The notes under the pieces are model-generated. The model saw nothing but the letters and a program-made list of their open reading frames with translations, had not been told where the DNA came from and did not search any database. From contig NC_057753.1 in NCBI RefSeq assembly GCF_004010195.1, forward strand, positions 10,872,340 through 10,928,710: a stretch of 56,371 bases of DNA, written 5' to 3'. Shown piece after piece: positions 2,528 to 47,650 of this stretch. Both the position numbers and the translations under genes were made by a program. This stretch comes from Chiloscyllium plagiosum (taxonomy: Eukaryota). The stretch's first letter is position 1; every line of letters starts with the position of its first letter.

Positions 2528-2650
2528 AATTCTGTCTTATGATCCTGTTCTACAGCCACCTGACTAAGGAGCAGCACTCCGAAAGCTCATCCTTCCAAAT
2601 AAACCTATTGGACTCTAACCTGACATTGTGTGATTTTTAAACTTTGTTAC
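2528..2650 (+). mobile_element. Penelope-type pLTR (family A) with degenerate HHR at 2557-2590
   Basis: cac CTGACTA a ggagc agc actcc GAAA gct c, followed by the family-A tail aaacct.ttggact.taacctg..ttgtgtgatttttaa. Confidence 0.7.
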
Positions 2651-3967
2651 TAGTGAATACAGCCTACACCTCCCACTACTGCCAGTAAAAACTTTAAAAT
2701 GCTGACGAAATGACAATTTCTAACGATTGTAGCTACTCATTCACTGCTCCTTCTGAGACAGGACATTGGTAACTTAGTGCGAGAGGCTGAAAGAAATGAG
2801 CAGCTTTGAGACAAAAACCTGTTGGATCTCATAGCTTTCAATGAGAGTCTCAGCCTGGCGGTGAAGTTCAGGTGACCTTGACCGCCACCAAACTTTGTTA
2901 CAGCTTCAGATCTCCCCAGCAAAAAGGCTGACAAAAAGTAGGTAATTTCTTTTTAGAACAGTTCACAGTCAAAGCCCACGCACCCATTCTCCACCCAACC
3001 CAACCCTTTACTATTGATCAGCACTGAGTTGTCCCTTTGCAGTACAGCCTTAACCCGTAGGAAATATTGCCTCATTCAGCAATTTCAACCCAGTCACCCT
3101 ATCCAAGTCAATTTCTCCCCACTCATTTGCTGGAGAGTGAGGGAGGTGCAGTCAAGAGTTAACCACACTGCTGTGTGTCTGGAGTCACATGTCAGCCAGA
3201 TGGGGTAAAGGATGCAGCTGGGACCACTGAGTGAATCCTTTCCCGCAACAGCAGTTTCCTTCCCTAAAAAGGGCAGGAGTGAATCAGGTGGGGTTTTCTT
3301 TCCCCTGAAGATGGTTTCCTTAGATTCTGAACACTAGATTTCTGACTGAATTCCAATTGTCATCTGCCGCCGCAGGATTCGAACCCGGTATCATCCCATT
3401 TCCGCCCCCCCTCACCTCAGTCAAAGCAAAATGCTGAAAGACCTGTTTCATGTTTCTTCCAGGCCCTGTAGGGAGAGAGAGAACGATCGCCCATGTGCAC
3501 AAAGATGAGTTCATGGTCTCTTCTGGAAGAGCAGTTTCTCAAATGAACTATATAGTCATTTTACAGGGAGAAGCATCCAGATAAGGCAACATACATATTA
3601 ATTGGGTGACCGTTACAATCAATGAGCATCAGTAGCAGAGACCAAGCCCTTTACAGTTCTTAACCTTGTTAATTGGATTCATACAATGTATACATTTCCC
3701 CTTGTTAGCTGACCTTGCACACTGAATGCTTCCAATATTGTTAAATGGCTCTACATAATGACTGCTTTTCCACCTTGTTAACCCATTATCCTTTCCTCAA
3801 GCACCCCATTGTTAACTAAGTTTTTATCTGATCTGAGTCATGCTCAACTGAACCTCTTATTTCACGAAACTCAAAACTTAACTCCTTCCCTGCCTGCTTA
3901 TACCCTATACACATTCTCAACGTGAGTCCCCAGAACCGGTAGATAATGGCACTCAGCCATCGCTACT

Positions 3968-5161
3968 TCAATCCCCCTGTGATGGCATGTGAACTCGCTG
4001 GTGCCTCCGCAGGTGGGAGGAGCGGGTGAATCCCTTCCTGCACTGAGAGCAGCTGAATGGCCTCTCCCCGGTGTGGACCCGCTGGTGGAGCAGCAAGGTG
4101 GAAGAATTGATAAATCCCTTCCCGCACTGAGAGCAGGTGAATGGCCTCTCCCCGGTGTGAATCCGCTGGTGGATCAGCAGGGTGGAAGAGTTGATAAATC
4201 CCTTCCCGCAGTCAGGGCAGGTGAATGGCCTCTGCCCAGTGTGGACCCGCTGGTGGGTCAGTAGGGCAGAAGAATTGATGAATCCCTTCCCGCACTGAGA
4301 GCAGGTGAATGGTCTCTCCCCAGTATGGACCCGCTGATGCGTCTGCAGGTTACCCAACCGACTGAACCCCTGCCCGCACATGGAGCAGGTGAATGGCTTC
4401 TCCCCAGTGTGGACCCGCTTGTGGGCAAGCAGCGTAGATGACTGAGCAAACCCCTTCCCACACACCGGGCATGTGAATGGCTTCTCCCCCGTGTGGACCC
4501 GCTGGTGCTTCTGCAGGTTGCCCATCCGACTGAATCCCTTCCCGCATACGGAGCAGGTGAATGGCCTCTCCCCAGTGTGTACCCGCTGGTGGATCAGGAG
4601 TGTAGATGACTGAGTGAATCCCTTCCCGCACACTGAGCAGGTGAATGGCCTCTCCCCTGTATGTACCCGCTTATGGATTAACAGTCTAGATGATTGAGCA
4701 AACCCCTTCCCACACACAGGGCAGGTGAATGGCTTCTCTCCCGTGTGGGCCCGCTGGTGCGTCTGCAGATTGCCCGTCTGACTGAATCCCTTCCCGCACA
4801 CAGAGCAGGTGAACGGCCTCTCCCCGGTGTGGACCCGCTTATGGATTAACAGTCGAGATGCCTGAGCAAACCCCTTCCCACACATGGGGCACGTGAACGG
4901 CTTCTCTCCCGTGTGGGCCCGCTGGTGAGTCTGCAGGTTGCTCATCCGACTGAATCCTTTCCCGCACACTGAGCAGGTGAAGGGCCTTTCCCTGGTGTGT
5001 ACGCGCTGGTGTCTCATGAGGTGGGATAATGCAGTGAATCTCTGCCCACATTGAGAGCAGCTGAACGGCCTCTCCCCAGTGTGAACACGTCTGTGAGTTT
5101 CCAGCGCCGATGGGGAATAGAATCCTTTCCCACAGTCCCCACATTTCCACGGTTTCTCCAT
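3968..5161 (-). CDS. C2H2 (Kruppel-type) zinc-finger protein, 14 tandem fingers, no KRAB/SCAN/BTB domain
   Basis: Open 397-aa ORF with 14 CxxC..HxxxH units at 28-aa spacing and TGE[KR]PF linkers; start in cATGG context; putative splice acceptor (minus-strand AG at 5491-5492) with polypyrimidine tract and ctgac branch motif. Confidence 0.93.
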
Positions 5162-5924
5162 GGAGGGGGAACTTTCCTTGTGTTGCTGTGTTTGAAATTA
5201 CAAGCAGAACGGGTACACAGTCTTCCCCCACCGTGAGGGGTGAGATTTTGATCCCCTAAGCTGAGGAGATGGGGTGAAGCACTTTTCACAGTCAGCGCAC
5301 TGAACCTCCCTCACTCAGGTGAGTCAGTATTGTTCCTGCCACACCAGTGTCCAAAATCTTTCAAGCAGACAAAAAGCAAACATTTCTTCTGTTTGAGTAC
5401 ATGCTAATAGTCAAATCCCAAAGAATCAAATGGCTCCATCAGAAGTTGATGCGTCAATTGTTTTCAGAATTTTTTCCCCTGCGTGACTTCCTGCAAAAAA
5501 ATTCACAACATAAGTATTCATTGTCAGTACAGTTAAATAAGAATTATATAGGTGGCAATTCCTGTAGATTGCCAGATGCCTGATGATCACATTATCCAGG
5601 ACACAGAAACCTGAAAACCCTCATGCAGCCAGATCGCCTTAAGTGTGTATGGAGGAAAACTTCATTTAGGTGACAATGACCTGGAACAAGCTGCCGTCAA
5701 AGGTTCTGGAAATGGAGCTGAATCAGGGACATGATAATGAAATGTCAAGGTTGCTTGCAAAAAGAAAGCCATTAAAAGTTGCTGAATGACTTCCTGCTGT
5801 ACTATTAAATAAAAAAAATGACAAGAAATACAGGACGTGTGGAAGGTGAAGAATAATTTGATATCAATGTGTGAATCCCTTAAATTCTGCTCAGTTCCAT
5901 GAGAAACTACCCTTTTAACTGTGA

Positions 5925-6385: not shown

Positions 6386-6409
6386 ACACTGAGGAAAGAA
6401 GTGATCCTT

Positions 6410-7525
6410 TGAGGGTGCAAACTGTATACATGCCAAACGGGGGAAATACCCAAGGAAAATACCTTTAAGAGGGAAGAGAGAGCATCTGAGTATCTTTGCA
6501 GAGTCTGCTCCCTCCCTGGATTCACTCCATTTGCTACAAGTGAATAGTGCTTCCCCCCTCTCTTTCCCTCCCAAGATGACAAATGGAAAGGAGGAGACAT
6601 TGCTTTGCTCCCAGATGTTGCCCAAAGGGAGGGAGTTTCACTCTGAAATTGACAGCCTACGAATGTACAGGATCTGCTCAGATGAGGAGACACATGACAG
6701 ACACTTGGAAGTACTCAAGGATGTCCTCATAAGAATGGGGTACAATGCTCAACGCATTGACCGCGAATTCCGAAATGCCACAGCAAAAAACTGTATTGAC
6801 CTCCTTAGGAGAAAGACATGAACTTTGTTGTCCAATACTTCCCAGCAATCGAAAAACTACTCCCATGTTCTTCACAGCGTGCAAAACATTATCAATGAGG
6901 GTGAGTACCTCGCGAAGACTTTCCCCATGCCTCCAATTCTCACCTTTAAACCACCACCAAACCTATTCCCAGATCATTATTCCCAGCAAACTGCCCAGCT
7001 TTCAGGACAACACCATGCAACCCTGTCATGGCAGAGGCTGCAAGATGCATCAGAGTGTCGACATGCATACCACCATTACATGTGGGGACACCACCCACTG
7101 TGTGTGCGGCAGGTACTTTTAAGACCTGGCTAACATTGCCTGCAGCATGTGAGAGAGACAAAGATGCCCTGAGGCATGGTACATTGGTAAGACTGAGCAG
7201 GGGCTACAGCAACAGATGAATGGACACTACACAACAATCAGGCAGGAGTGTACCCTCCCATTTGACCTCAAACCTTCAGGTGACTATCCTTCAAGGCAGA
7301 CCTCTGGACAGGCAACAACGCAAGTGGCCAAACAGAATCTGATAGTCAAGTTTAGTACCCATGGGGGATGGTCTCAGCTAGGTCCTTGAGTTCATGTCAC
7401 ACTATAGGTGACCCCACTACACTACACACACTTTCTCTCTCTCACACACCCCCACACACACACATTCCTACAGACCTTCTCTCATATGCTCACACATACA
7501 AACCCACAGACACACCCTCTCACAC
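6410..7525 (+). mobile_element. Penelope-like element fragment (RT C-terminus to GIY-YIG), frameshifted
   Basis: LRMYRICSDEE..HLEVLKDVLIRMGY, a CPEAWYIGKT..QQMNGH-like endonuclease segment, and a CA-rich tail. Confidence 0.8.
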
Positions 7526-9664
7526 ATGCAAGGTCTTTTCTCCAGGGCGGGAGTGTCCAAAATCAGAGGACAGGGGTTTGAGGGTGAGGGGAAAGATTTA
7601 AAAGGGACCTAAAGAGCATCTTTTCCAAGCAGAGGGTGGTGCGTGTATGGAATGAACTGCCAGAGGAAGTGGCCAGTACAATTACATTTAAAAGGCATCT
7701 AGATGGGTATGTGAATAGGAAGGGTTTGGATGGATATCGGTCAAATGCTGGCAAATGCAGTTAGATTTACATCAGATATCTTTCAGAATGGATGTGTTGG
7801 ATTAAAAAGTCTATTCCCATCCTGTATATCTCCATGACTATTTGATAACAGATCCTTTATTTCTGTTGATGTAAATATTCTTATACATCATAGCTGGGTA
7901 TTAATAGTTAGGTGTAAAGGAGAGAGGATTCCTCAATTAGGGCACTATAAGAATCCTGGGAGACCCCGATTTCTAGTTTACTTCCCAATGATGAAACGTT
8001 AAGCACGAGCACCGACTATGTATTGATTTCTAATTTTGTTTCATTTTTCTGGTTTTATTCCCTGCTATGGTGACACTCCATGTCTGGATGATTGACAGGT
8101 TGTGGGTTGGGCCTTAATTAACTGAATGTTCTATTGATCCAGAAGGTGTAAACAGGGGGTCAAAGCTTCAGCAGAATTCCTGCAGAGCTGAGAACAGATG
8201 ACATCTCACTTTCTGTGAGAACTGAGAGATCAGCAGAGGACAGAGAAATCAGGACCTGTAATTCGAGCTGACACCAGACTACCATGTTATCAGTGCTTTG
8301 ATTGGCAGTGCCAACCCTCTACCTTTACCCAGCTTCCCATTCAGCTTGAATGCCACAAACCCCCTCGATATCCAGGATCGAATCCTCATCATCCTGAAGA
8401 CATCTCTCTGTAAGGAGTCTCAGATCATAATTATTCTCTTCAATGTGTGCAGTCAATTCATTCACTAATGTTATAATGCAGTACACATTTAGATACAGTT
8501 TTTAGTTTCAATTTTTATGATCTTTTGAATCCAGCATTGAATACTGGTTGATTTATTCTCTGGTGTTCATTTTCCACATTGTTCACCAGCCTTGATTTGG
8601 ATTGGGCATGCTAAATAGCCCATAGTTTCCAGGGATGTGCAGGTTAGGTGGGTTAGCCAATGGGAAATATAAGGTTATATATTCATAGCAAAAGAATCAG
8701 GAGTAGGCCATTTGGCCTATTGAGCCTGCTCCACCATTCATTAAGATCGTGGCTGATCTATCCGTCATCTCAGCTCCTCCTGCCTGCATTATCCCAACTA
8801 CCCACAATTCCCCTACCATGGAAAAACCCATCCAACTATGTCTTGAATATACTTAATAAAGGTGGCTCTGCTGCTCCCTTGGGCAGAGAATTCCATAGAG
8901 TCACGACTATCCGGGAAAAGCAGTTTATCCTCATCTCTGTCCTAAATCTACTCCCCCTAATCTTGAGGCCATGTCTCCTCATCCTAATCTCACCCAACAG
9001 CAGAAACAACTTGTTAGGATGGGGCCCATCAGCTTCTGGCGTGCCCTTCGGAGGAGGCAGCATGGACTTGATGGGCCGAAGGCTTGCTTCCACACTATGG
9101 GGCTATGATTTCCCGCAGTTGTGTTTGCCCCAGACCGCAGCGCCCAGAACCTCACACCTTCTGCAAATCGAAAGATAAGTCCCACCCTGCCCTCTCCTGT
9201 GTGTTATCTAACTGCTTAATCATTTCAAGTGAATACAGCCCTCACTGCTGCCAGTAAACTTTACAATGCTGATGAAACAATGCAATACCTGCAGTACTGA
9301 AAATCGTAAGGCTTCTAATGCGATCAGTTACTGATTCACCTATTCTTCTGTTGCACAGAATTGGAAATACAACATTGGAGGTTAAAAGAACTGAGCAGTT
9401 TTAAACAAAAACCCACCAATTCACTAGGCTCCCTGTTCAGCACAGTTCACTTACTGCCAGTAAACCTTAAAGCAATTCATTCCCACAATGCAATGAATTC
9501 CCACTTTCCAAAATCCCAGATCTACTCACTGACTCAGTCGCTGTCTCACAAATGAAAGATTTTGTTGTAACTTCTGCTCCCAGTAAGGGCAAAACATCTT
9601 TGAAAGCTGCTGTCAAAGTCCAGTCTTCACAACGACACTTCTGCTTTCACTGAAGACGATTAGT

Positions 9665-10440: not shown

Positions 10441-10584
10441 TCAATTCTAATTTATATTGAACTTTCTTCCTTTTTCATTCCTTAAAAGCTAAAAATCTCC
10501 ACCCTACACACACTTTGCTGAACCTAATCCCTGCTGCACCTCATCCTGAAGAGTCTGGTTCATGCTAATTAACAGGCCCACACA

Positions 10585-11160
10585 CAGGAGAGATCTGATT
10601 GAAACATAGAATACTGAATGGTCCAGACATTGGGAATATTGGGAAAATGTTTCCATTGCTAGGAGAGACTAGGCCGCGAGGATACAGTCTTAGAGTAAAG
10701 GGAAGACCTGTCAGAAAGGAGATAAGGGAGAAATTTCTTCAACCCAACTGACAGACTGGATAGGCTGGGATTTTTTTCACCTGAGCATAGGAGGCCAAGA
10801 GGTGACCTTATAGATGATTATAAAATGAGTGGTATGGATGAGGTGTACGGCAGGTATCCTTTCCTTAGGGTGGTGGTTTCATGATGCGGGAGCAAATTTT
10901 GAACGTGAGAAGAGAAAGATTTTAAAAAGGCATGAGGTGCACCATTTCAGTGTGGCTTGTGTGTGAAATGAATGTCCGGAGGAAGTGATGGATGCAGTTA
11001 CAGCTGCAATGTTTAAAAGGCATTTGGATAAGTACATGAATAGGAAAGGTTTGGAGGATATGCGCCAAACACTGGCAGGTGGTACTAGTTTAGTTTGACA
11101 ACATAGTTAGCATGGACTATTTGGACTGAAGGTTCTGTTTCTGTCCTGTATTGGTCTTAA
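10585..11160 (+). mobile_element. CR1 LINE 3' fragments
   Basis: GDLIET..MFPLLGETR and LGFFSPE..RGDL motifs; paralog at 24215-25110. Confidence 0.7.
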
Positions 11161-11389
11161 AACCGTTTTCTTGCCTTCAACTATAACTATCCACTTCTTT
11201 TTTGTTCAAAAATCAGATTAACTCAGCCTTGAATATATTCAATGATCCCCAAACTGCAGGAAGACATCCCCACTTCCAAATTCAATTCCTCTTGCTAATG
11301 TACTACTTGCCTTACTCATTGCTTGCTGCACCTGTCTGACAACTAGCATTAACTGATGTAGAAGGAGGTCCCTTTGTACATCCACACAT

Positions 11390-11520
11390 CATTCCTGAAG
11401 GGCTCGTGCCCGAAACGTCGATTCTCCTGCTCCTCGGATGCTGCCTGACCTGCTGTGTTTTTGCAGCGTCACACTTTTCTACACTGACCACCAGCATCTG
11501 CTGTCCTCACTTTCTCCATA
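11390..11520 (+). mobile_element. Short HHR-bearing pLTR insertion (family B), core damaged by a 3-nt deletion
   Basis: attc CTGAAG gggc-like stem tcgt gccc GAAA cgtc gatt plus the family-B tail; paralog at 25357. Confidence 0.75.
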
Positions 11521-11765
11521 CCCCAATATATCACCATTTAAACAATGCACCTCCTTTCATTTTTTGTATACAGCAAAGGCTACAACTTCATATTGCATTT
11601 GCCACGTGTTTGCTAATTGAGATACAGATCTGGACCAACTTTTCCAGGGTCTGTCCCCTTCCTGGATTCACTCCCTTTCCTTTCAGTTGCTGCAAATCAA
11701 CAATTGAACACCAAAACGAAAAAACAAATAGAAAAGGGGGTGAGAAAAGTGAATGTTGTACTCAC

Positions 11766-13269: not shown

Positions 13270-13855
13270 CAAGACCAATGTCAGGCTTATTCTCCATCTC
13301 ACACATAAGCACACACTTTCTCACACACTCACACATGCACGCAACCATACAAGTAAGTCTATGAGGTGAATTTGCATTTGCAGATCCATTCTATTTGGCT
13401 CAAAAAGCACACAATCTGCAGGCGGTCAATCCAAGTAATATTTTACAAATTCCTACTTTGGAAATAGAACCAGTCTGACTCAAGATTGGAATACAGAGAC
13501 TCAAACTTCACACCTTTAATACATTGTCTGAGCTGAGCGGTCACCATTTTGTTTCATAAAACCTGAAGTTATTTCAAGAATGTGACTTGAAAGTAGTTCT
13601 GGGATTTACAATATTATTGAAATGAAACCTGCAACTCACTGTAAAAGATGGAAGACTTAACAGCAATCTAAATTTGTTCAATATATCATTTCGGCTGCAT
13701 GACACTGTAATTTTTCGATATAAATAATGTGTCTTATGATCCTGCTCCACAGCTACCTGAAGATCTTTCCAAATAAACCTGTTGGACTATAAATTGGTGC
13801 TGTGTGATTTTTAACTTGATCCACCCCAGTCCAACACCGGCTCCTCCACATCGTG
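13270..13855 (+). mobile_element. Penelope-type 3' region and pLTR (family A), HHR core deleted
   Basis: CA-rich stretch then the family-A tail ending caccccagtccaacaccggctcctcc; after ctacctgaaga the stem II and GAAA are missing. Confidence 0.7.
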
Positions 13856-25356: not shown

Positions 25357-25490
25357 ATTCCTGATGAAGGGCTCGTGTCCAATACGTGGACTCTCCGGCT
25401 CCTCGGATGTTGCCTGACCTGCTGTGTCTTTCCAGCGCCACACATTTCAACTCTGATCTCCAGCATCTGCAGTCCTCACATTCTTCACAT
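25357..25490 (+). mobile_element. Short HHR-bearing pLTR insertion (family B), degenerate
   Basis: attc CTGATGA a gggc tcgt gtcc AATA cgtg; paralogous to 11390. Confidence 0.7.
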
Positions 25491-25906
25491 CCCAACATTT
25501 AAACAATGCACCTCCCTTCTTTATTTTTTCCCCACAGCAAAGGCTATAAGTTTACCCTGTGGTTACTGCATTTGCCATGTGCTCGCCAATTGAGATACGG
25601 ACTCTTTCCAGCGCCACACATTTCAACTCTGATCTCCAGCATCTGCAGTCCTCACATTCTCCACATCCCAACATTTAAACAATGCACCTCCCTTCTTTAT
25701 TTTTTTCCCCACAGCAAAGGCTATAAGTTCACCCTGTGGTTACTGCATTTGCCATGTGCTCGCCAATTGAGATACGGACCTGGACGAACTTTTCCAGAGT
25801 CTGTCCCCTTCCTAGATTCGCTCCCTTCCGTTTCAGTCAACAATTGAACTGCAGAACGCAAAAAAAGGGAAAATGGGAGGGTGAGAAACAAAAGTGTTGT
25901 ACTCAC

Positions 25907-26210: not shown

Positions 26211-26305
26211 GTTAGTGACATATTTTAAGCGTCCAAATACCAATTGGAATGAAAAACGTAGGAGCCATACGTTTTTGTATGTCTTTTCGCCAGGGTAGGG
26301 GACTC

Positions 26306-26536
26306 CGAATAAAAGTAAATTACTGCGGATACTGAAATCTGAAACCAAGAGAAAATGCCGGAAAATCTCAGCAGGTCTGGCAGCATCTGTAAGGAGAGAA
26401 AAGATCTGACATTTCGAGTCTCACTGAACCTTTGTCAAAGCTTTGACCAAGGGTCAATTAGACTCGAAATGTCAGCACTTTTCTCTCCTTACAGATGCTG
26501 CCAGACCTGCTGAGATTTTCCAGCATTTTCTCTTTT
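26306..26536. mobile_element. Palindromic non-autonomous element with two back-to-back HHR-like motifs (family C)
   Basis: Arms of ~95 bp centred on aagctt (26438-26443); 12-bp TSD ggtaggggactc at 26294-26305 and 26537-26548; empty paralogous site at ~12194. Confidence 0.85.
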
Positions 26537-27079
26537 GGTAGGGGACTCTCAAACTAGCGGGCATAGGTTTAGGGTGAGAGGGGAAAGAATTAAAAGGTAA
26601 CTTTTTCACGCAGACGGTGGTGAGTATGTTGAACGAACTGCCAAAGGAAGTGGTGGAGACTGCTTCATTTACAATATTTAAAAGGCATCTGGATGGGTTT
26701 ATGAATAGGAAGGGTTGAAAAAGATATGGGCGAAATGCTGGCAAATGGGACATGACACTAATTTAGAATTCAGTGCTCTGCAACTCTATTTCTATATATT
26801 CAAAACCAATTTCACAAGACTAGGAATAGGCAATTCACCCGAGCTGTTGCCTAACTAAATACAAATTTCAGAAAGACACCTGCAGCTCTTTTAAAAAATT
26901 GAACATGCTTTCAGATTTTAACAATGTTTCTGAATATGTCATTTTGGCTATTTTCAAGCGTAAAGATCAGCCATTTCTCACCTCCCTGAACCCCGTCTTT
27001 CGCAGGTAGAGTCGTGACCATCCATTCTCTCTCTCTTCTTAGAAGGGCTTGATACAGTGATCAAAGAGGGCTTGAGAGT

Positions 27080-28650: not shown

Positions 28651-30921
28651 TGGCCATGCTAAGTTCCCCTGCAGTAGTGAGTTATTGGGTGGCATGACAG
28701 TCATTGTGGACCCAATGAGCCAAATGGCCTGTTCACACACTGTAGGGAATCTACGATTATGAGATCTGTCAAACCAGCAACTTCTGATTGGTGAAGTATA
28801 AGTCCAGGAGCCAATCTTTCAGCAGTTTTTGATTTACTTATACACTGGAAAGGTTCGGTGTCAGAGAGGTATTTTCTAAATGGGTCTCAGTATTATATAA
28901 TGACCCCCAAAGCAACTGTGATCACCAATGGTTAGGTTCGGATAACTTCAGTGTTGGTAGGGGCTGTCGTCAGGGATGTCCTGTCTCACCATTATCATTC
29001 ATGCTAGTAATCGAACCACTAGCAGAAGCTGTACAAACTGACCCTAACGTAGCGGCTCCGAGGGTTGGTTCAGGTACACATAAAGTTACTCTCTATGCAG
29101 ATGACGTCCTCCTTTTCTTAAGTGATCCTTTGATATCCGTGCCCTGCCTAATTCAAGTGGTCAATCTATTTAGCATGTTCTTAATCTATAAAATCAATTT
29201 TGTGAAATCAGAGGCCACGCCATTGGATGGTATCGCCAGTATATCCAACTTACCGGACAGATCTTGCTTTCCCTTTTGGTGGTCACTGGAAAGTTTTCGA
29301 TACTTAGGTATTTTTATCACCCCAGTATTTGTTCAGCTGTATAAAGCCAATTTTGTACACCTATTAGAGAAAATAAGGCAGGACCTTCAACGATGGGGAG
29401 ATCTCCCAATATCCTGCTTAGGCAGAGTAGCTCCAGTTAAAATGAATATTCTACCTCATCTTCTATATCCTATGAGAATGTTCCCCTCGATGTTGTCGAG
29501 ACTGGCATTGTGTAAGCTCCACGGCTGGCTTGGTTCCTTTATCTGGAATCATAGACAGCCCCTTATCAAATTAGAAAAGCTGCAACTTCCACAGGCAAGG
29601 GGAGGACTGGACTTTCCAGACTTTAGGAAGTATCAGTTGAGCTCTTTATTATCTTATGTAGCTGATTGGGTCTCTTGTGACCCACAATCAATTTGGTTAG
29701 ACATTGAGATCTCCCAAGCAAAGTATCCCCTCATCAATCTTTTATTTACGGATAAGATGAGAGCTATTATGGAGTATTGAAAAAACCCTATTGTATTAAA
29801 TACAATTAAAGCCTGGAGGATAATGCGACAAGATGAGGGTAACCTGCAAAAAACCTCCCCTTATACTCCTATCGTGGGCACATCGGGATTTTAGCAGGGC
29901 TGACAGATGCTACATTTAAAACTTGGAAGTCCAGAGGTATCTCTTGCTTGGGGGACCTGTTCGATGGCGAGATTATGAAGTCTTTTGAGCAGTTGCACCA
30001 GAAGTTTGGACTGCCTAACAGGGACCTTTTTTGGTATTTCCAAATATGAGATTATATACAGAAGAAGACCACACTGATAGGCAATCCCTACAAATCAGAT
30101 AGGGAAAGAAGAGTACTATGGCCAATGGGGCCGCCCTCAGTCAGTACTCTTTATCACTCACTATACAATGAGGTATCGAAAGACATGGAACGATTATTTA
30201 AAGCATGGAACCAAGAATTGGGGTTAAAAATCTCTTTAGAAATGTGGGAGGACATCTGGGAAAATGCCAAAGAGATCTCTATTTGTAGTAGAACTCAAGC
30301 TATTCAATTAAAGATGCTCATATAGCACCTGAATGACTCGCAAAATAGGATCATCGCCAATGTGTCCTAAATGCAAAATAGAAGTTGGCACTCTCACGCA
30401 TTGTCTATGGACATGTCACAAGATCAGTAAATACTGGGACAGAGTAGCGAATGCTCTGACAGAGAGCTTAAGTACGGAGATTAGGTTGGATCCAGTGTCT
30501 CTACTCTTGGGCTTTTCAGATTTACCCTCCCTGGACGTGCTCAGGAGGAAACTATTATCCATTCTCTCCTTTTGAGCAAGGAAAAATATTTTAGTGAACT
30601 GGGCAGCTGAAGGCCCTCCAGGACTTTCGAACTGGCACAGGTTAATCATGGAATATATCCACCTTGACTTCCTCACAAATATGGTGCACCAAAAAACTGA
30701 ATTATTCTATAAAATATGGCAGCCCTTTTTGAACTATATCGACATAATGTCCAGGGCTTTTGTCTGGCTGTGGTAATGGTTCTGGCTGGTCCGGGGACCC
30801 CCAAGAGGAGGAATCCCTTATAAATATGGGTTTTATTATGACTTGATGTAAATCTATTTTGAGCATGTACTTAGTTATTTAATTATTCTGTTGTCTGTCG
30901 CTAGTAATGTATGATATCCTA

Positions 30922-31523
30922 GTTAAAAATCACACAACACCAGGTTATAGTCCAATAGGTTTGATTGGAAGCACATTAGCTTTCGGAGCGTCGTTCCTTC
31001 ATCAGGTGGTAGTGGAGGACACAATTGGAAGGCGCAGAATTTATAGCAAAATTTTACAGGGTGAATTTGTAGTTGCAGAGTTACATTGTACTTTGCTCAA
31101 AAACTGCATGAATTCATGTAAGACTCTGTTATCTCACTTTTTAGATTCGAATTAATCTAAACATCATGGCACAGACAGAGAACACAGGGGGCTAACACCT
31201 TCAACATATTGTCTAGCTGACACCAATTAGATTTAGATTAGATTTGATTAGATTTGATTACAGTGTGGAAACAGGCCCTTCGGCCCAACAAGTCCACACC
31301 GACCCGCCGAAGCGCAACCCACCCATACCCCTAAATTTACCCCTTACCTAACACTACGGGCAATTTAGCATGGCCAATTCACCTGACCTGCACATCTTTG
31401 GACTGTGGGAGGAAACCGGAGCACCCGGNNNNGTGTGCTTCCAATTAAACATGTTGGACTATAACCTGGTGTTGTGTGATTTTTAATTTTGTCCACCCGA
31501 GTCCAACACCGGCATCTCCAAAT
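30922..31523. mobile_element. Family-A Penelope pLTR insertion with inverted ends, HHR at 30974-31008 (minus)
   Basis: Inverted family-A tails at both ends; TSD tatgatat[c/t]cta at 30910-30921 and 31524-31535; contains a nested SINE and a 4-N gap. Confidence 0.75.
31228..31428 (-). mobile_element. HE1-type SINE, 3' part
   Basis: (gatta) tail repeats and V-domain core; ends at the N gap. Confidence 0.85.
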
Positions 31524-31805
31524 TATGATATTCTATTTTATGTTTAGGTTGTTTGTAGGATAGATCAGTTGGGTTTTTCTCTTTTATTGGTTTCGGTTAT
31601 TCCTTTTCTTTTTTCTTATTTATTTAATTTTATATTGGTGATTATACTTGTTTGTAGTACTTTTGTAAGTTTGTAAAAAAAAATTTAAATTTCCTTTTAG
31701 AATAAAAATAACTATTAAAAAAGTCCTTTTTTTTCCACTTTTTAAAAAAATTTCTTATTCAACTGACTCTTTCTAATTGTCCAGATGGGCTGGACCTCTT
31801 TTCAG

Positions 31806-32100: not shown

Positions 32101-32867
32101 ATAAATGTCTTTTTATCTGTCCTCAAACAATCATAATCAATCTGTCCCTCCTTAACATTGATTTTTTTAGTTGGCAGAATCCAACCCTTACTTTAGATAA
32201 ACCTTCGGAATCAAAACACACAAACCTTTCAAAACTAATCAAAGATTTTCCATGTTCTGTACAAATCATTACAGACGTCCTCACCTCTGGGACTCCCAGT
32301 TATATCCCCATATGAGCTGTTATTTTCATTAAATAATCTGAAAATTATTGACTTCTCTCAACCTCTTCGATCCTGGGAAATTTCCATTCTCTGCGAAGTT
32401 TGTTACACATTGGCAAGTTCAATCCTCCCCCACTTCTCAAGAACACACTTTATAGCATGCAACATTCTCAGTACCTGGTAAAGTTCAGTGGGGAAACTAT
32501 TTTCAGTCCAACAGAATTCCTCGGAAATATTTTTGACAAATGCACTGCTCCCACCAGAGCTGGGGTTCCGCAGCCCCTTTTTTATTTCCCCATCTTCCCA
32601 GGATACAGAATTTCTCCCACCAGAAACTGTTGCCCTGAAAAAAAATTCAGCAGGAAGATCATTATGCAGCTATCATTAAAAAAATCTCATTTGGGTCACC
32701 CAAGGATAGAAATGGAAGAACCTGTCTCTTCAAGCTTACTGTTCGATTTGCCCTTACAACATTCCTTGAATTTAAGGTGTTCCTTTGTAGTGTTTAATTA
32801 TGATCCGTTAAAAGCAGTATCCAGTCTCATCTGAACCAAAGTTCAGGCAGCATCCGAGGAGCAGTAA

Positions 32868-32903
32868 AATCGACGTTTCGGGCAAAAGCCCTTCATCAGG
32901 AAT
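32868..32903 (-). ncRNA. Minimal type-I hammerhead ribozyme, core intact
   Basis: auuc CUGAUGA a GGGC uuuu GCCC GAAA CGU C/gauu. Confidence 0.75.
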
Positions 32904-33322
32904 ACAGGCAGAGTGTCTGATGGGTGGAGAAGTTTGGAACAGGGGTGAGGTGGGGGAAGGGGAAATGAGGAAACTGTTCAAGTCCACATTGATGCCCTGG
33001 GGTTGAAGTGTTCCGAGGCGGAAGATGAGGTGGTGAGGGAGCGGCAGTGAAGGAGGCCCAAGAACTCCATGTCCTCAGCAGAGTGGGAGGGGGAGTTGAA
33101 ATGTTGGGCCACAGGGCGGTGTGGTTGATAAATAATAAAAGCTTCAGGGCAGAGGAAATGACTTGGGAGTTGCAGTGGGAGAGGGACTCCCCGAGATTCT
33201 TGTAGAGAGAGGAGGAAAACTTCTTCAAGGCATGATTCGGAGATGCCGGTGTTGGACTGGGGTGTACAAAGTTAATAATCACACAACACCAGGTTATAGT
33301 CCAACAGGTTTAATTGGAAGCA

Positions 33323-33357
33323 CACTAGCTTTCGGAGCGTCGCTCCTTCATCAGGTG
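33323..33357 (-). ncRNA. Minimal type-I hammerhead ribozyme (family A)
   Basis: cac CUGAUGA a GGAGC gac GCUCC GAAA GCU A/gug. Confidence 0.75.
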
Positions 33358-33365
33358 ATTGTGAT

Positions 33366-33400
33366 CACCTGATGAAGGAGCGTCGCTCCGAAAGCTCGTG
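33366..33400 (+). ncRNA. Minimal type-I hammerhead ribozyme (family A)
   Basis: cac CUGAUGA a GGAGC guc GCUCC GAAA GCU C/gug. Confidence 0.75.
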
Positions 33401-33615
33401 TGCTTCCAATTAAACCTGTTGGACTATAACCTGGTGTTGTGTGATTTTTAACTTTCTTCAAGGCAGGCATCGTTGCAAGAGGATTTGCAGTATGGTTAAA
33501 ATCAGCTAGGTAAAAACAATGACTGCAGATGCTGGAAACCAGATTCTGAATTCTTTTCCAGCACCACTTTAATCCAGAATCTGATTTCCAGCATTTGCAG
33601 TCATTGTTTTTACCT

Positions 33616-33650
33616 CATCTGAAGAAGGGCTCATGTCCGAAACGTCGATT
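33616..33650 (+). ncRNA. Minimal hammerhead core (family B), weak stem I
   Basis: CUGAAGA a GGGC ucau GUCC GAAA CGU C; predicted cut after 33646. Confidence 0.6.
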
Positions 33651-33788
33651 CTCCTGTTCCTTGGATGCTGCCTGACCATCTGCGCTTTTCCAGCAACACA
33701 TTTTCAACTCTGAAGGTTCTGAATTCTTTTCCAGCACCACTTTAATCCAGAATCTGATTTCCAGCATTTGCAGTCATTGTTTTTACCT

Positions 33789-33823
33789 CATCTGAAGAAG
33801 GGCTCATGCCCGAAACGTCGATT
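33789..33823 (+). ncRNA. Minimal hammerhead core (family B), weak stem I
   Basis: CUGAAGA a GGGC ucau GCCC GAAA CGU C; predicted cut after 33819. Confidence 0.6.
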
Positions 33824-34807
33824 CTCCTGTTCCCTAGATGCTGCCTGACCATCTGCGCTTTTCCAGCAACGCATTTTCAGCTCTGATCTCCAGCATCTGC
33901 AGTCCTCACTTTCTCCTCCTTTACCTCATCTGAACCAATTCAACTGATGAACAAGCATAACAACTGTTCTGTCTGCTCTTGAGATGTGACATCCTTCCCC
34001 TCTCTCTGTTGACCCAACAGGATTATCAGGGCTGCAAGTACTACCTCAAATTATGATTGCTGATCGACACTTTGCTCGTGTTGCTTAACATAAGGATTTA
34101 AAAGCTGCTGGCCTGATCTCCCACAAAGCACAAAAACAGGCTTTCCACCCATGCCTGCTCAGAAGATAAACTTCAGAAGAATAGAGCACAAAATAACAGC
34201 AGGTTACAGTCCCACAACTGTTTCCTATTGGGGGTGTTTGGGGGCGGGAAGTAAAGTGTTTTACTCTCAGACATCGGAGGAAGACGAAGTTTCAGCAAGT
34301 GTGCAGTTAAAATTAAACCCTGCGCTTTTTTCTTGTTTTAACAAGCTCAAACTGCATTGGCTAGAGGGGTAAGAAAAAATGAAGGAAAGGGAGTTTGCAA
34401 AGTCTCCTCCCCCTGATTCCCACTCCTCAGCTGGAGACAGTGCTGCCACCCTCTGTCCAGAAGTAAATGCTGGAAAGGTTAATAGTGAGGAGGATGGTCT
34501 CCGGCCACAGTCTGATATCGAGCAGCTGGTAAATGGGGCAGAGCGATGGAATTTAAACTCGTAGTGTTCAGGAAATTTAATGAGGAAAGGAAGTACACAA
34601 TAGTACTACAGATTACTGAGGAACAAAGGGACCTTGGTGTCCAAGTCAAGAGATCCCCAAAGTTGACAGACCAGGTAAAACAGGGTGACGAGGAAGACAT
34701 TGGGGATGCTTATTTTCATTAACCAGGTCTTGGAATATAGGAGCAAGAAAGTCTAGTCACAGCAGAGGAGGGGATCTTATAGAAGTGTTTAAAATCACGA
34801 GAGGCAT

Positions 34808-38043: not shown

Positions 38044-39009
38044 CAGGCAGCATCCAACGAGCAGCAAAATCGACATTTTGGGCAAAAGCCCTTCATCAGG
38101 AATAAAGGCAGGGAGCCTGAAGCGTGGAGCGATAAGCTAGGGGAGGGTGGGGGCGGGGAGAGAGTAGCATAGAGTACAATGGGTGAGTGGGGGAGGAGAT
38201 GAAGGTGATAGGTCAGGGAGGAGAGGGTGGAGTGGATAGGANNNNNNNNNNNNNNNNNNNNNNNNNNNNNNNNNNNNNNNNNNNNNNNNNNNNGGGGTGT
38301 GGACCTGACCAGGTAGTCACGGAGGGAGCGGTCTTTGCGGAAGGCGGAGAGGGGTGGGGAGGGAAATATATCCCTGGTGGTGGGGTCTGTTTGGAGGCGG
38401 AGAGGGGTGGGGAGGGAAATATATCCCTGGTGGTGGGGTCTGTTTGGAGGCGGAGAGGGGTGGGGAGGGAAATATATCCCTGGTGGTGGGGTCTGTTTGG
38501 AGGCGGAGAGGGGTGGGGAGGGAAATATATCCCTGGTGGTGGGGTCTGTTTGGAGGCGGAGAGGGGTGGGGAGGGAAATATATCCCTGGTGGTGGGGTCT
38601 GTTTGGAGGCGGAGAGGGGTGGGGAGGGAAATATATCCCTGGTGGTGGGGTCTGTTTGGAGGTGGCGGGAATGTCGGCGGATGATTTGGTTTATGCGGAG
38701 GTTGGTAGGGTGGAAGGTGGGCACCAGGGGCGTTCTGTCCTTGTTACGGTTGGAGGGGTGGGGTCTGAGGGCGGAGGTGCGGGATGTGGATGAGATGCGT
38801 TGGAGGGCATCTTTAACCACGTGGGAAGGGAAATTGTGGTCTCTAAAGAAGGACGCCATCTGGTGTGTTCTGTGGTGGAACTGGTCCTCCTGGGAGCAGA
38901 TACGGCGGAGGCGGAGGAATTGGGAATACAGGATGGCATTTTTGCAAGAGATAGGGTGGGAAGAGGTGTAATCCAGGTAGCTGTGAGAGTCGGTGGGTTT
39001 GTAAAAACT
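38044..39009 (-). mobile_element. Penelope-like element fragment with degenerate HHR (38068-38103), inserted into a ZNF pseudogene
   Basis: FYKPTDSHSYLDYTSSHP..KNAILYSQFLRLRRICS..RTPLVPTFHP; pLTR with CTGATGA a gggc tttt gccc AAAA tgtc. Confidence 0.88.
38343..38660 (+). repeat. Perfect minisatellite, 6 x 53 bp, inside the Penelope ORF
   Basis: Unit ggcggagaggggtggggagggaaatatatccctggtggtggggtctgtttgga. Confidence 0.92.
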
Positions 39010-39591
39010 GTCAGTGTGGACGCTCTGGTGTCTCTGCAGATTGGACAACTGGGAGAAGGCCTTCCCATACTCGGGGCAGGCATACAGCATCTCCCCAGTA
39101 GGGATCCGCCAGTAGGGATCACCAGGGTGGACAAGTGAACAAGGCCCTTCCCGCACACGGAGCAGGTGAACGGCTGCTCCCCAGTGTGACTGCAGCGATG
39201 GCCTTCCATCGAAGAGGGGAATTTGAATTCCTTTCCGCAGTCCCCGCATCTCCACAGTTTCTCCACGACGTGGACCTCCTCGTCCGTCTCTCGAGCATTG
39301 ACAATCAGTTGAAAGACCAGCCACATACACAATGTGTTCAGTCTCCCACACTGTGAACCGTGTGTTTTTTTTCTTTTTCTGTGTAACCAGAAAAAGCTTT
39401 TCCCTCAGTTCACTGGGACACTCTCTCCTAGGTGTGTGACTATCTCTCAGACACACAAATGTCTGGAAACAGATGTTTGGAAACAGTCAGATCACACATG
39501 GTTGCTCCTGTTAGATTCAGGCCCCTCGGTCAGATTGTGATGTGGCATTTAATTTGAGGTTTCGGCTCGCAAAGCCTCCTTTTCTCATATC
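39010..39591 (-). pseudogene. C2H2 ZNF pseudogene
   Basis: [41 protein letters not shown], then a frameshift; truncated by the Penelope insertion; acceptor at 39592-39593. Confidence 0.85.
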
Positions 39592-41689: not shown

Positions 41690-42484
41690 GATCACTGGCG
41701 AATTTCCTGGTGTTTCACCAGACTGGAATCTGATCAAAGCCCTTCCCGCATACGGAGCAGGTAAACGGCCTTTCTCCGGTGTGGACCCGCTAACGTGACT
41801 GCAGGTTGGAGAACTGGGTAAACTTTTTCTCGCATCAGAGCAGGTGAACGGCCGCTCCCTGGTGTTGGCTCGCTCGTGTTTGTGCAGGGTGGATAAATCG
41901 TAGAAGCCATTGCCGCACATGGATGTGAACCTGCTGCTGGATCAGGAGGTGATGTGACCTAATGAAGTCTTTCCTGCACTGTGGGCAGGTGAACAGCCTC
42001 TCCCCAGTGTGGAAACGCTGATGAATCTCCAGCGCAGATGCGGAAGAGAAACCGTTCCCACACTGCCCGCATTTCCACAGTTTCTCCCTAGTGTGGGAGT
42101 CCTTGTCTCTCTGCAGGTGCAATGTGTCAGTAGAAAGTTCGCCCACCCTTACAGCACCTGTATGGTGTGATTTGTTTCTTCAGTCTGTGTTACTAGTTAA
42201 GCCTCTGATAATTGGAACATTCTTACTCGGTCTGTGAAATAGGTTAAAGCTTGCTCCACTGTCACTATTCTGGGATACTCTCACTCAGTGTGTGGCTCTC
42301 AAAGATTTTCCAGTCACACTGATGTTTCAAACTTAACGAAGCAGACAGAACAGACAGACCTCGCTTCTCCTCCTCGTTTTCAAAGCTGTCTATATTCACA
42401 GTTTGGGTGAATCAACTGACCGCCAGATACTGACATGAAGCTTGGTTTGAGATTTCTGCTTCCAAATTCTTCTTTTCTGTTGTC
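41690..42484 (-). pseudogene. C2H2 ZNF pseudogene
   Basis: [37 protein letters not shown].. with frameshifts and deletions; acceptor at 42485-42486. Confidence 0.85.
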
Positions 42485-42907: not shown

Positions 42908-43054
42908 GTGAGCAAAACATTTTCCCCCTCTTCTCCATTTCTGTTATCATTGTGGGACTAAACTGTTGACTTGCAGGAATTGAAGGGAAGGGAAATGAAC
43001 CCGGGGAGGGGGCAGACTCTAGATAGCTACTTCTAGGTCGCTTGGTTTTAAGGA

Positions 43055-43460: not shown

Positions 43461-43472
43461 CAAGTGGGGAAT

Positions 43473-44104: not shown

Positions 44105-44269
44105 CTCAGCTCACAACCCTATCAGTCTATTCCCTAACCCTTTAAATACCAGGGAGGAGTGAGTCCATGCAACACTTACAATTGTTTTGGGATACAGTTT
44201 TTTTTAACCAATACTGAATAGTCTCTTATCTCAGTTTCTTTTTGCTCAGCTTGACTTTCAGAGGGTTGT

Positions 44270-44575
44270 CTGTAGGATGTGCTTGCCACTCTGCCGGAGG
44301 GGAAGGAGTGTCCACCGGGCCCTTAACACGAGTGTGATGACTCCACCCTTTTTCAGCAATTCAGATGGCTGTTTCAGTAGTCAGGAGGGTTAGGAACGGT
44401 CCGTTCCCAGCTTGGGTGCAGTTTGGTATCTTTCCAGGTTTTGATCAGGACCCAATCACCCAGTTGTATTCGATGTATGGCGAACTCAAGTGGAGGTGTC
44501 TGGATCAACAGACCCTTCTTCCTCAGGACAGACAAAGAAGAGCCGAATGCCACAATATAGTTCTTTAAAAACTTA
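44270..44575 (-). pseudogene. pol: Retroviral integrase C-terminal (GPF/GPY) fragment
   Basis: IQLGDWVLIKTWKDTKLHPSWE(GPF)..LTTETAI..EKGWSHHTRVK. Confidence 0.8.
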
Positions 44576-44831
44576 TCATTGAACTCTACAGTTGGTAATT
44601 GTCCTGTCACTTCCTCATCATTTCCTCTAATTAGGGTTGGCTCAAATATAGGCACCAAGAATTCCTCAACGTTTACTCCGGAAACCCTGAGATTCTTGTT
44701 AGTCAATTTAGGTCTAAACCTTAGGGATGATCCACCAAAAATACTGCGCCCTCCCCTTCTGGTCCCACCTTAAAATTTATCAAGGGTTCCCGGTGGGTCT
44801 CAGGAGGAAGGACCCCTGACTCCCCAAATCT

Positions 44832-45534
44832 TCATCTAAAGTCATTAGGAAAACGGCTAATTTCTCGTACTAATTCCGGGCATTCCCGTTTAAAATGCCC
44901 CACTTTCCCGCAATGGTAACACCCTGCCTGTTGCCTCCTTTCCCGGGTCTCTGACACTTGTCTTTCATGTCCTCCCCTACCCTTCCTGTTATCCCCTGAT
45001 CCCATTCTCCTTTTTGTTATTTCTTCTACTGCCGCCACCATCATTTTGGCTTTCTGCTTCTCGTCTTCCCTTTTCACATACACTTTCTGTGCCTCACATA
45101 ACAGTTCTTCCATCTGTCTTTCACTCCATCCATCTAATTTCTGTATTTTCTTTTGTATTTTTCTGTTCTTTCCCCGATTCCTCTGTATTCATGGGACATA
45201 ATTTTACTCCCGCGCTCCCTATCCAACCAGCCGCATAATTGGACTCTTTTTGACTGTACGCTTCTTTTCAATTGACATATATATTAAGATCTTGACACAG
45301 CCAATCCTCATCGGACCCATATTTGGGCCAAAAAATACCAGGCGCCTTAATACTTTCTCTAGTCCAAATGAAACAACAATAGTTTATCATTGTGGCCTTA
45401 TCTTTCTCCCGCGTCCAGGAATTGTGTTCCCAATTACCCAACATTTTCCCCAAAGGACTGTCAGGCAGAATATATTCATCTTTAATGTTATTTACAGATC
45501 GATCATTACACAGGCAACTTCCCGTGCCTCCCAT
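44832..45534 (-). pseudogene. gag: Retroviral gag (MA, capsid end, NC), capsid core deleted
   Basis: MGG..PDSPLGKML..MINYCCFIW..FWPKYGSDEDWLCQ; LLCEAQKVYVKREDEKQK; CYHCGKVGHFKREC knuckle. Confidence 0.88.
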
Positions 45535-46528
45535 TGTTGCTAATTTAATTAATCTTAATGAGGTCCGGTGTCACCTTCTTCCACACCCCCTTCAGGGTCT
45601 TGACTAGACACCTTACTCGTCCGATTAATCTGACCAATTATATGCTTTTTTTTGAGACTTCAACTGTTCTCCATAAATCACTTTTATGTAAGGATAAAGG
45701 AGATTACTTAGAAACTGATAGTAAGGCAGTCATGACCTGTAAAAAGAACAGGAGTTAACATTTTATTTCATAATCTGTAAAATCCTTAATCTTAAAAGAA
45801 ATCATTTTAAAATTTCCATAGTAGAAATCAGATTCAAAACAGTCCTGGATCTCAAGCTCCAGGGAACAAAGCACATACATTCAATCACCAACAAACAAAT
45901 GTGCATTCAAATCGAATCACAAAGGGTTAAACTTTCTACTAGCTGTACAGCTCTTTCTCTCTCACACACATGCGCACACACACACAGACACCGTATCTCA
46001 CAGACATTTTGAGCTTCCTGCAACGACTCCTCTAGCTTTTGAATATTCTGGACATCTGGCCATAAGTTAGTTACGAAGTGCACCCTCAGTAGCCCTTCAG
46101 CTACTAGTCCTTCTGACATGGGCTGTTTTCCATTGACATATGCTTAATTTTATATATCGCCAATTCCCCGTACATTTGTACGTCCTGACCACAAAGGCAA
46201 TACTTAAAGGTCTCTTTTCTCACCTTGGTCTGTGCACAGAGTTACCTGGTCATTTTTGGTGCGCCCCATCCCGCAGCAATTCCTGTAGCAAATACCGCTG
46301 CCCCCGATTGCCCGGATATATCCTTTAAGACCTTTCCCTACCCGGGTCTTGTGCACAAGAGTTGCCTAACCGAACCCGCTGCATCTGCCCGCCTTGTTTC
46401 CAGGGTCTTCCAGTCCGGATCGTACTCGCCCAAACCACGAACGACAAGCAAGGGAGTCGGAGATCACCGAAATCGGCGAGGTGCACCTCCCCCATCGTCC
46501 CAAGAGTGTCAAGCAGTCGGAGTTTGGG

Positions 46529-46547
46529 ATCCTGGGCGAGGCCCCCA
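46529..46547 (-). promoter_or_regulatory. Primer binding site, tRNA-Pro type
   Basis: TGGGGGCCTCGCCCAGGAT two nt after the LTR CA; canonical PBS-Pro is TGGGGGCTCGTCCGGGAT. Confidence 0.8.
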
Positions 46548-46798
46548 ATTGTGAGAAACAGAACTCACAAATCAATCAGCCTGAGACAAAGCCTTGGAAA
46601 CAAGAACAATTTATTACAGCCTTGCAAGTACCGGACGCTTCTGCAATCAAGCAGAGATGCGCGCGAAAACAGAGTCTGTTAGCATTCTTATTCAGTTTAC
46701 AAGTTGCGGAATCACACCTCCCTTTTCCCATCCTATCATAAGCTGATTACCTCACTTGTTTTTCCTCTAGTTATTTTCTTATCTGGCCATCCTGCTGT

Positions 46799-47650
46799 GG
46801 AGGAGAAAGTGAGGTCTGCAGATGCTGGAGATCAAAGTTGAAACTTTATTGCTGGAACAGCACAGCAGGTCAGGCAGCATCCAGGGAACAGGAGATTCGA
46901 CGTTTCGGGCACAGGCCCTTCTTCAGGAATGAGCAGAGAGTGTTCAGCAGGAGAAGATAAAAGGTAGGGAGGAGGGACTTGGAGGGGGGGGAGTTGGAAA
47001 TGTGATAGGTGGAAAGAGGTCAAGGTGAGGGTGATAGGTCGGAGTAGGATGGAGGCGGAGAGGTCAACAAGAAGACTGCAGGTCAGGAAGGCGACGTGGT
47101 CGACGGTGCCCTCCACCGCATCTCCTCCACTTCCAACTCCCCTCCTCCAAGTCCCTCCTCCCTACCTTTTATCTTCTCTCGCTCCGCGAGTAGGCGGCCT
47201 GTCTCCCCAATATAGAGGAGGCCACACCGGCTGCAGCGGATGCAGTAGATGATGTGGGTGGAGGTGCAGGTGAATCTGTGGCGGATATGGAAGTTTCCCT
47301 TGGGGCCTTGGAGAGAAGTGAGGGGGGAGGTGTGGGCGCAAGTGTTGCACCTCCTGCGGTTGCAAGGGAAGGTGCCGGGAGTGGTGGTTGGGTCGGTGGG
47401 GGGTGTGGATCTGACAAGGGAGTCGCGGAGGGAGTGGTCTCTACGGAAAGCTGATAGGGGAGGGGAGGGAAATATATCCTTGGTGCTGGGGTCTGTTTGG
47501 AGGTGGCGGAAGTGACGGCGGATGATGCGCTGTACATGGAGATTGGTGGGGTGGTAGGTGAGGACCAGTGGGGTTCTGTCCTGGTGGCGGTTGGAGGGGC
47601 GGGGCTCAAGGGCGGAGGAGCGGGAAGTGGAGGAGATGCGGTGGAGGGCA
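46799..47650 (-). mobile_element. Penelope-like element inserted in the ERV LTR
   Basis: TSD cctgctgt at 46791-46798 and 47651-47658; GIY-YIG segment IIYCIRCSRCGLLYIGET; pLTR with intact HHR. Confidence 0.88.
46895..46930 (-). ncRNA. Minimal type-I hammerhead ribozyme, fully paired (best copy)
   Basis: AUUC CUGAAGA a GGGC cugu GCCC GAAA CGU C/GAAU; stem I AUUC:GAAU; GUC cleavage triplet. Confidence 0.82.

Follow-up and report, generated by a model that had tools for sequence, protein, structure and literature searches.

Minimal hammerhead ribozymes (HHRs) are a described component of Penelope-like elements (PLEs). In the metazoan survey of Cervera and De la Pena 2014 (PMC4209133) they combine the hammerhead core boxes with an extra base between positions 9 and 10.1, a G10.1-C11.1 pair and a palindromic 15.2-16.2 segment, lack helix III, lie in the pseudo-long terminal repeats (pLTRs) of the elements and occur mostly as single copies from truncated elements, together with pairs on opposite strands. 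All of these traits recur in the material examined here, a stretch of 56,371 nucleotides of the Chiloscyllium plagiosum genome (assembly GCF_004010195.1, contig NC_057753.1, forward-strand positions 10,872,340 to 10,928,710), called the window below, and in the related copies elsewhere in that genome. The motifs are the minimal type-I hammerhead of PLEs, a class already in print; new are the copy number, a family (C) with a U3-A8 core pair and the mapping of the ends of the copies. The data probably mean that the HHRs belong to the pLTRs of three Penelope-like families (A, B and C), and that the short copies without an open reading frame (ORF) are dead-end cDNAs that derive from the uncleaved transcript's 5' end; these short copies are likely not a family that moves independently. 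The U3-A8 variant has been reported in Cercyon of Schistosoma, while helix II measures 4-5 bp here against 7-8 bp in the metazoan PLE ribozymes, and about 164,000 core boxes here stand against about 4,000 in the coelacanth and 9,000 in Xenopus, counts that are not like for like since the earlier descriptor required the stems (PMC4209133). In the passages of that survey consulted, and in two of its supplement files, sharks are not named, and no paper on these shark families was found; Repbase and Dfam were not searched, so the families may already be catalogued.

Three further systems are close. The endonuclease-bearing PLEs of the Neptune clade (Craig et al. 2021, PMC8557442) have a reverse transcriptase, a CX2-5CxxC linker and, at the C-terminus, a GIY-YIG domain, are truncated at the 5' end and show an inverted copy with a tail often at one end only. 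The shark families resemble them in all of this, and pLTR, tail and inverted copies are all present as in Neptune-type PLEs; unlike in that account as described, the one-tail rule and the pile of 5' ends are counted here. The Poseidon element of Anolis carolinensis, PAc (Frangieh et al. 2024, PMC11167929), has an HHR near the ORF start and two internal reverse-transcription start sites bounding the tail, as here. Its protein nicks and extends both target strands, takes uncleaved RNA as template, needs sequence downstream of the start sites and assists its own HHR; uncleaved template and extension of both strands are also proposed for the shark elements. PAc differs in belonging to another clade and in that its HHR overlaps the start codon, whereas in the shark subfamily B2 the ATG lies about 160 nt downstream of the HHR. 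The non-LTR retrozymes (Li et al., bioRxiv 10.64898/2026.07.22.740005) are non-coding, pLTR-derived units with a type-I HHR and include one chondrichthyan host. They are described as head-to-tail tandems with a complete HHR per unit, whereas the shark copies are dispersed solos and head-to-head pairs; no tandem of two or more successive units, each having its complete HHR, occurs in the window, no genome-wide search for such tandems having been made. Two same-strand AGCU-type cores of another subfamily, at 2619545 and 2619751 on contig 1 (206 nt apart), are a possible retrozyme-like tandem.

The motifs of each family follow the ORF of the PLE to which they belong, an arrangement known since 2014, and this linkage bears out the attribution of the motifs to Penelope-like elements in the initial annotation of the window. 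Positions 47179-47643 (minus strand) encode the cysteine linker and the start of the GIY-YIG domain, and the peptide gave 105,540 first-look genomic candidates, the 150 that were scored showing 98-100% identity. In longer B1 copies reverse transcriptase and GIY-YIG share one frame and match the Pfam models RVT_1 and GIY-YIG, the latter just below its cut-off; a search of NCBIfam gave nothing useful. The best named homologues of the element ORF are from carpet sharks and rays. The B1 HHR lies 272 nt past the end of the endonuclease in 11 of 19 ORF ends and within 700 nt in 13 of them. Family A copies extend upstream through a 3' untranslated region (UTR) into a second ORF of the same type, 33% identical to B1 over the C-terminal part that was seen, and by the strict A pattern 12 of 36 ORF ends have the HHR at a distance of 288-777 nt beyond the stop. 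The family C HHR follows by about 430 nt the end of a third ORF of this type, seen in its last residues. The CX2-5CxxC linker, present in A and B (the view of C being confined to its ORF end), points to Neptune or Nematis types (PMC8557442), and by this motif A and B are placed as Neptune-type PLEs. The layout of an element reads ORF, 3' UTR, TATA box (in A and C), HHR and two alternative 3' ends that delimit the tail, followed in B2 by an ORF start about 40 nt past the tail. Families A and C and subfamilies B1 and B2 all include members continuing into the 3' UTR or the ORF. An 893-residue frame was rejected as the full-length ORF, its start being an unrelated tandem repeat.

Exact core patterns, stems not required, were counted in the 3.56-Gb genome. 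There are 132,680 ACGU-type cores (control 65) and 31,375 AGCU-type cores (control 11), which makes up the total of about 164,000 intact core boxes (control 76), besides 2,139 of the U3-A8 type (control 681); the excess over chance is very large. Pairing was scored with an anchored script, a MAFFT alignment of ten representatives having misaligned a further family, D. In the anchored majorities stem II is preserved in every group and stem I in A, C, C2 and D, the letters themselves differing, in agreement with the annotated picture of several families whose stems differ while their pairing is kept. The stem I pairing AUUC/GAAU that had been given for family B holds for subfamily B1a (4 bp) and fails for B1b and B2, where 2 bp are followed by a U-U mismatch and then 1 bp. 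The majority of each subfamily has the core boxes with the 3-8 pair; in family C the box had been read as CUGANGA and is in fact UUGACAA, with U3-A8, and descriptors fixed on CUGANGA miss this family. With positions 3 and 8 left free in picking, 16 of 30 family C copies carry T/A, 8 carry C/G (the sister family C2), none T/G and 6 other letters. The extra base between 9 and 10.1, the G10.1-C11.1 pair and the palindromic 15.2-16.2 segment are found in all scored groups, these features being partly built into the search pattern. Because C3-G8 has been replaced by U3-A8 and pairing is kept with different stems, the compensated changes argue for selection on the fold in the source elements. A dimer through the palindrome, with a 4-bp duplex, is energetically possible, but it is not the cofold minimum.

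Two groups lie outside the three families. C2 (eight or so loci) has the stem II start of C with a C3-G8 core, a TATA box and an initiator-like site, and is possibly the sister of C. Family D has a longer stem II, lies beside a Poseidon-type GIY-YIG domain (no cysteine linker seen) and accounts for the majority of the 100 matches listed first out of 20,741 to the pattern (control 127); its copies seldom begin at the ribozyme edge, and it was not found in the window.

The ends of the copies are regular. Every family ends at either of two 3' points separated by about 35-40 nt, the tail being the stretch between them, and exactly one arm is tailed in 108 of 115 head-to-head pairs (A 52/56, B1 30/33, B2 1/1, C 25/25) where about 50% would be expected; the window pairs at 26309-26539, 30921-31528 and 33234-33455 follow this rule. 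Tail-to-tail pairs number 8. Target duplications of at least 8 nt border 55 of the 80 short pairs and 18 of the 32 short solos, with a control of at most 3%. Among 79 pairs the tailed arm reaches further 5' in 20, the untailed arm in 37 and both equally far in 22, so that the untailed arm is not simply copied from the tailed first strand. The junctions between arms are distinct in 73 of the 79, and no clonal short unit was seen. On the strength of the target duplications, the independent arm ends and the distinct junctions, each head-to-head pair is one insertion event, and both arms were likely copied from RNA. A MITE-like fold-back family (miniature inverted-repeat transposable element) was rejected as the source of the palindromes, there being no fixed unit.

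The beginnings were mapped on copies picked by their 3' pattern to avoid bias, the first listed on contig 1 out of 24,210, 2,061 and 34,628; two B1 copies and one C copy were set aside because of N at the junction. The 5' end falls in a 10-nt interval at the 5' edge of the ribozyme in 21 of 53 A, 10 of 28 B1 and 24 of 49 C copies (55/130 in total), 12 C copies starting exactly at -4 relative to core position 3. By comparison, the cleavage-site interval holds 5 of the 130 (A 1, B1 1, C 3), and the positions just upstream of the start interval hold 2, 3 and 2. Among the B1 values, several at -60 mark where the reference ends, and the ones at -37 to -40 are miscalls. Expressed as a stop rate, the pile reaches 0.06-0.10 per nt against 0.002-0.016 in the adjoining bins, one B1 bin further upstream being inflated by short references. 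In A and C a TATA box precedes the pile by 30-32 nt, and in C2 one precedes the corresponding position by 29 nt. Ahead of the start, 8 of 18 against 20 of 108 copies carry an extra G (p=0.028), as do 25/55 with the native letter removed (p=0.011); such a G is the mark of a copied cap in L1 (PMC11702581), and its presence here is suggestive of a cap. The copies that bear the ORF start (2,102 pattern matches) include five readable ones, of which one has its start at the pile and contains the entire HHR, and the other four begin within the tail or close to it. These copies, among them that at 32843-33560 in the window, join the ORF start to 3' parts at varied points, as if the enzyme had jumped onto RNA downstream of the start site.

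A single scheme would accommodate these ends. The 5' edge of the ribozyme would be an RNA polymerase II start site at which the element transcript is capped; the element protein would nick both target strands and prime reverse transcription at two internal start sites. The cDNA from the 5' pLTR would run off the capped end after 90-130 nt, holding the HHR only, and two such cDNAs, when joined, would give the head-to-head palindromes. This chain, from polymerase II start through double nicking and priming and run-off at the cap to joined cDNAs, is considered quite probable from the analysis of the ends. The short copies would likely be dead, since the downstream binding region is missing from them, as is the upstream TATA box in A and C. 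For copies that bear the ORF, the template would have to carry the start site after the ORF, and would be supplied either by tandem read-through or by RNA cut at both HHRs and re-joined, the latter a proposal of 2014 (PMC4209133). Protein-assisted dimeric cleavage at both pLTRs would produce a unit-length RNA that, circularised or template-jumped, puts the ORF ahead of the start site. The idea that retention of the ribozyme is owed to cleavage and re-joining, which would allow coding copies, is put forward tentatively, with somewhat less in its favour than against it.

Several observations weigh against this reading. The start intervals were chosen with the pile already in view, a TATA box is absent from B1 and B2, and the exact TATA hexamer is missing in one of three A copies checked. 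A first-pass test of the extra G gave 25/78 (p=0.39), and B2 shows no such excess (4/16). In family C the pile lies on a pyrimidine tract followed by AG, which resembles a 3' splice site. Of four sequencing runs compared with one genomic locus (its positions 1130-1580), one gave 1,557 reads, a second gave 0 and two were contigs; the 1,557 reads, on both strands and with 93% running into unlike sequence, show no pile of read starts or ends, these being raw poly(A) single-cell reads, a kind of data unable to settle starts or cleavage. The anole element in vitro starts at both sites on both strands (PMC11167929), so far as described, and the one-tail rule is thereby left unexplained. As for the fold, stem II of at least 4 bp with stem I of at least 3 bp occurs in only 5 of 30 loci picked by their core, the commonest subfamilies, B1b and B2, are weak in stem I, and monomers of A, B1a and C fold with no more stability than shuffled sequences. 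Core positions are only slightly less diverged than others (combined p=0.042), so that decay need not have been purely neutral; in the 3'-picked copies, subfamily-diagnostic columns omitted, non-CpG differences from the majority affect 14/416, 2/222 and 4/389 core cells against 72/1638, 17/963 and 58/2150 elsewhere. This weak deficit may reflect constraint among the source elements and not on the copies, which likely decay after insertion. The role of the ribozyme meets objections of its own: no cleavage product appears among the mapped copies or reads, anole HHR mutants inserted normally in vitro (PMC11167929), and Naiad elements lack HHRs yet thrive.

The short units might instead be an independent non-autonomous family, resembling short interspersed nuclear elements, MITEs or retrozymes, with an internal promoter and re-mobilised by the Penelope protein. 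Their sharp 5' and 3' ends and target duplications would suit this explanation, and vertebrate retrozymes are reported as pLTR-derived (bioRxiv 2026.07.22.740005). The internal TATA-less promoter described for Drosophila Penelope (PMC2377424) keeps it alive, chiefly for family B, which is also without TATA. However, the distinct pair junctions, the members of A, B1, B2 and C that reach the 3' UTR or ORF, and a sole same-strand tandem that is a chimera without stem I all speak against an independent unit, as does the end of the copies at the tail, without the downstream binding region, and this explanation is unlikely. Accordingly, the annotated movement of short ORF-less units stands in so far as the short copies are real insertions with target-site duplications; a mobility of their own is unsupported, because the copies stop at the tail and so lack the downstream sequence needed by the anole element (PMC11167929). 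A less probable account still takes the short copies as random 5' truncations of the 3' pLTR, piled up where the enzyme stalls at the ribozyme fold or at a splice site. Heavy 5' truncation is typical of these elements (PMC8557442), C and C2 have an AG just before the core, and a Drosophila intron ends at helix I (PMC4209133). Yet the stop rate at the pile exceeds that of the adjoining bins, the pile lies beyond the structure, the AG is part of the commonest C start and no constant exon precedes it, and the TATA distance fits in A, C and C2.

More serious, although still doubtful, is the explanation in which the ribozyme rides along without a role in transposition, or in which the palindromes arise by antisense-RNA self-priming and the solo pLTRs by recombination (Arkhipova 2013). 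The rotifer paper (PMC3846280) describes a pLTR with a TATA box and initiator, as well as palindromes and tails on one side, and attributes these to recombination and antisense self-priming. The lack of a role agrees with the anole mutants without effect on insertion in vitro, the absence of RNA ends at the anole cut site as reported (PMC11167929), the success of Naiad elements without HHRs, and a cut site that in the shark carries no pile of copies or reads. The selection on the fold implied by the compensated stems and the U3-A8 swap argues the other way, as do the target duplications of 18/32 short solos and the independent ends of the two arms. Capped run-off from uncleaved RNA is the preferred reading of the short copies.

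Within the window, the 13 annotated motif sites are all recognisable copies of the minimal hammerhead, with core boxes and palindromic 4-mer intact in only 7 (core position C3 at 31005, 32899, 33354 and 46926 on the minus strand and at 33369, 33619 and 33792 on the plus strand). An intact core with stem II of at least 4 bp and stem I of at least 3 bp remains at 3 of the 13 (33354, 33369 and 46926). A strict scan of the window gave 3 matches, whereas 200 block-wise Markov shuffles averaged 0.08 and never exceeded 2. Deletions or substitutions damage the core at six sites (2560, 11395, 25361, 38099, 26443 and 26438); most of the motifs are eroded copies of a small hammerhead for which self-cutting is predicted. 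An Rfam scan of the window returned no hammerhead family at E<=10, the sub-threshold matches being mostly microRNA models on palindromes.

On the minus strand, 46799..47652 is a young B1a Neptune-type fragment with linker and GIY-YIG start (47179-47643, 97% identical in amino acids to copies in the genome), an inverted piece of 3' UTR, an intact HHR (C3 46926, stems 4+4 bp), a tail and an 8-bp target duplication. Also on the minus strand, 32843..33560 is an internally deleted B2 element comprising the tail, the ORF start (33480 downwards), a GIY-YIG relic (32948-33127) and a 3' pLTR whose HHR (C3 at 32899) has a stem I of 2 bp plus mismatch. The B2 ORF start is interrupted by a family A head-to-head pair at 33234..33455, with both HHRs intact on opposite strands (C3 33354 minus, 33369 plus), a tailed left arm and a 12-bp target duplication (33221-33232 and 33454-33465). 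A transcript through this pair is predicted to form a single hairpin of -131 kcal/mol and so to be unable to fold as a ribozyme; an HHR dimer from its two motifs (33323 and 33366) was rejected on this ground and for their opposite strands. Next to it, 33541..33919 (plus) holds a 173-nt tandem duplication of a chimera of B2 tail, target and short B1b copy (C3 33619 and 33792), in which stem I lacks its 5' strand at the motifs 33616 and 33789; it was rejected as a retrozyme, the tandem (33541-33886) being chimeric and lacking stem I. A 14-bp direct repeat (32826-32839 and 33925-33938) brackets the whole nested B2/A/B1b composite.

Family A is also represented on the plus strand by a pLTR copy at 2528..2647 (core damaged, position 8 being U), which meets an N gap on its upstream side, and by a copy with 3' UTR at 13636..13855, absent from the initial annotation, in which stem II and GAAA are deleted; the broken ORF relic at 6618..7530 (plus) is from a family-A-related PLE (about 50% amino acid identity) and has no HHR behind it. 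The family A pair at 30921..31528 has another repeat between its arms, an untailed minus arm (30921-31228, C3 at 31005) with intact core and broken stems, and a plus arm (31433-31528) consisting of the 3' part with tail past an N gap. Short family B copies occupy 11389..11517 (with tail, core lacking 3 nt) and 25357..25484 (GAAA box damaged), both on the plus strand, the second a duplicate of the first: both lie in an old duplicated 0.9-kb segment (10757-11628 and 24701-25601, 77% identity) that carries the motif sites at 11391 and 25357. The family C head-to-head pair at 26309..26539 has U3-A8-type cores damaged in both arms, with its motifs around 26440 on opposite strands, a tail on the left arm only and a 12-bp target duplication (26294-26305 and 26537-26548). 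A B2-type 3' fragment at 38044..39057 (minus) contains an ORF relic (38295-39057), an N gap and a 3' pLTR with a damaged GAAA box (C3 38099); thus the motif sites at 32868, 38068 and 46895 all sit on ORF relics. Family B 3' ends on the minus strand are found at 553..612, without the HHR core, and at 56306..56371, running past the window edge.

Other features of the window include C2H2 zinc-finger arrays at 3968-5197, 38691-39404 and 41835-42179 (all minus) and at 51144-51471, the first a 409-residue open frame with about 14 fingers. A zinc knuckle with a weak integrase C-terminal match at 44374-45188 (minus) resembles a broken retroviral or LTR-element relic, and fragments of LINE-type (long interspersed nuclear element) reverse transcriptase and endonuclease lie at 17269-17676, 21748-22697, 28833-29780, 35119-35985, 36861-37265 and 49077-49622. 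Six 53-nt copies at 38289-38712, four of them identical over the aligned span, within the B2 ORF relic beside its N gap, and an exact 142-nt tandem at 15197-15480, are possibly assembly artefacts.

The role of the Penelope hammerhead and the origin of pLTRs, tails and inverted copies are treated as open questions in PMC8557442 and PMC11167929, and the young and very numerous shark families provide numbers for where copies begin and end. A wider and decidedly more speculative possibility is that the genome is a record of well over 100,000 insertions made from a capped, TATA-driven RNA in whose first few bases the ribozyme begins, with one protein dimer priming at both ends of the target, each from a different internal start site, to give one tail per pair, and in which HHR cleavage and re-joining license the copies that carry the ORF; this would explain why the fold was kept through the U3-A8 swap. 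If such licensing were true, uncleaved RNA would yield only dead copies of 90-130 nt, and ribozyme mutants would be expected to lose the long insertions while keeping the short ones.

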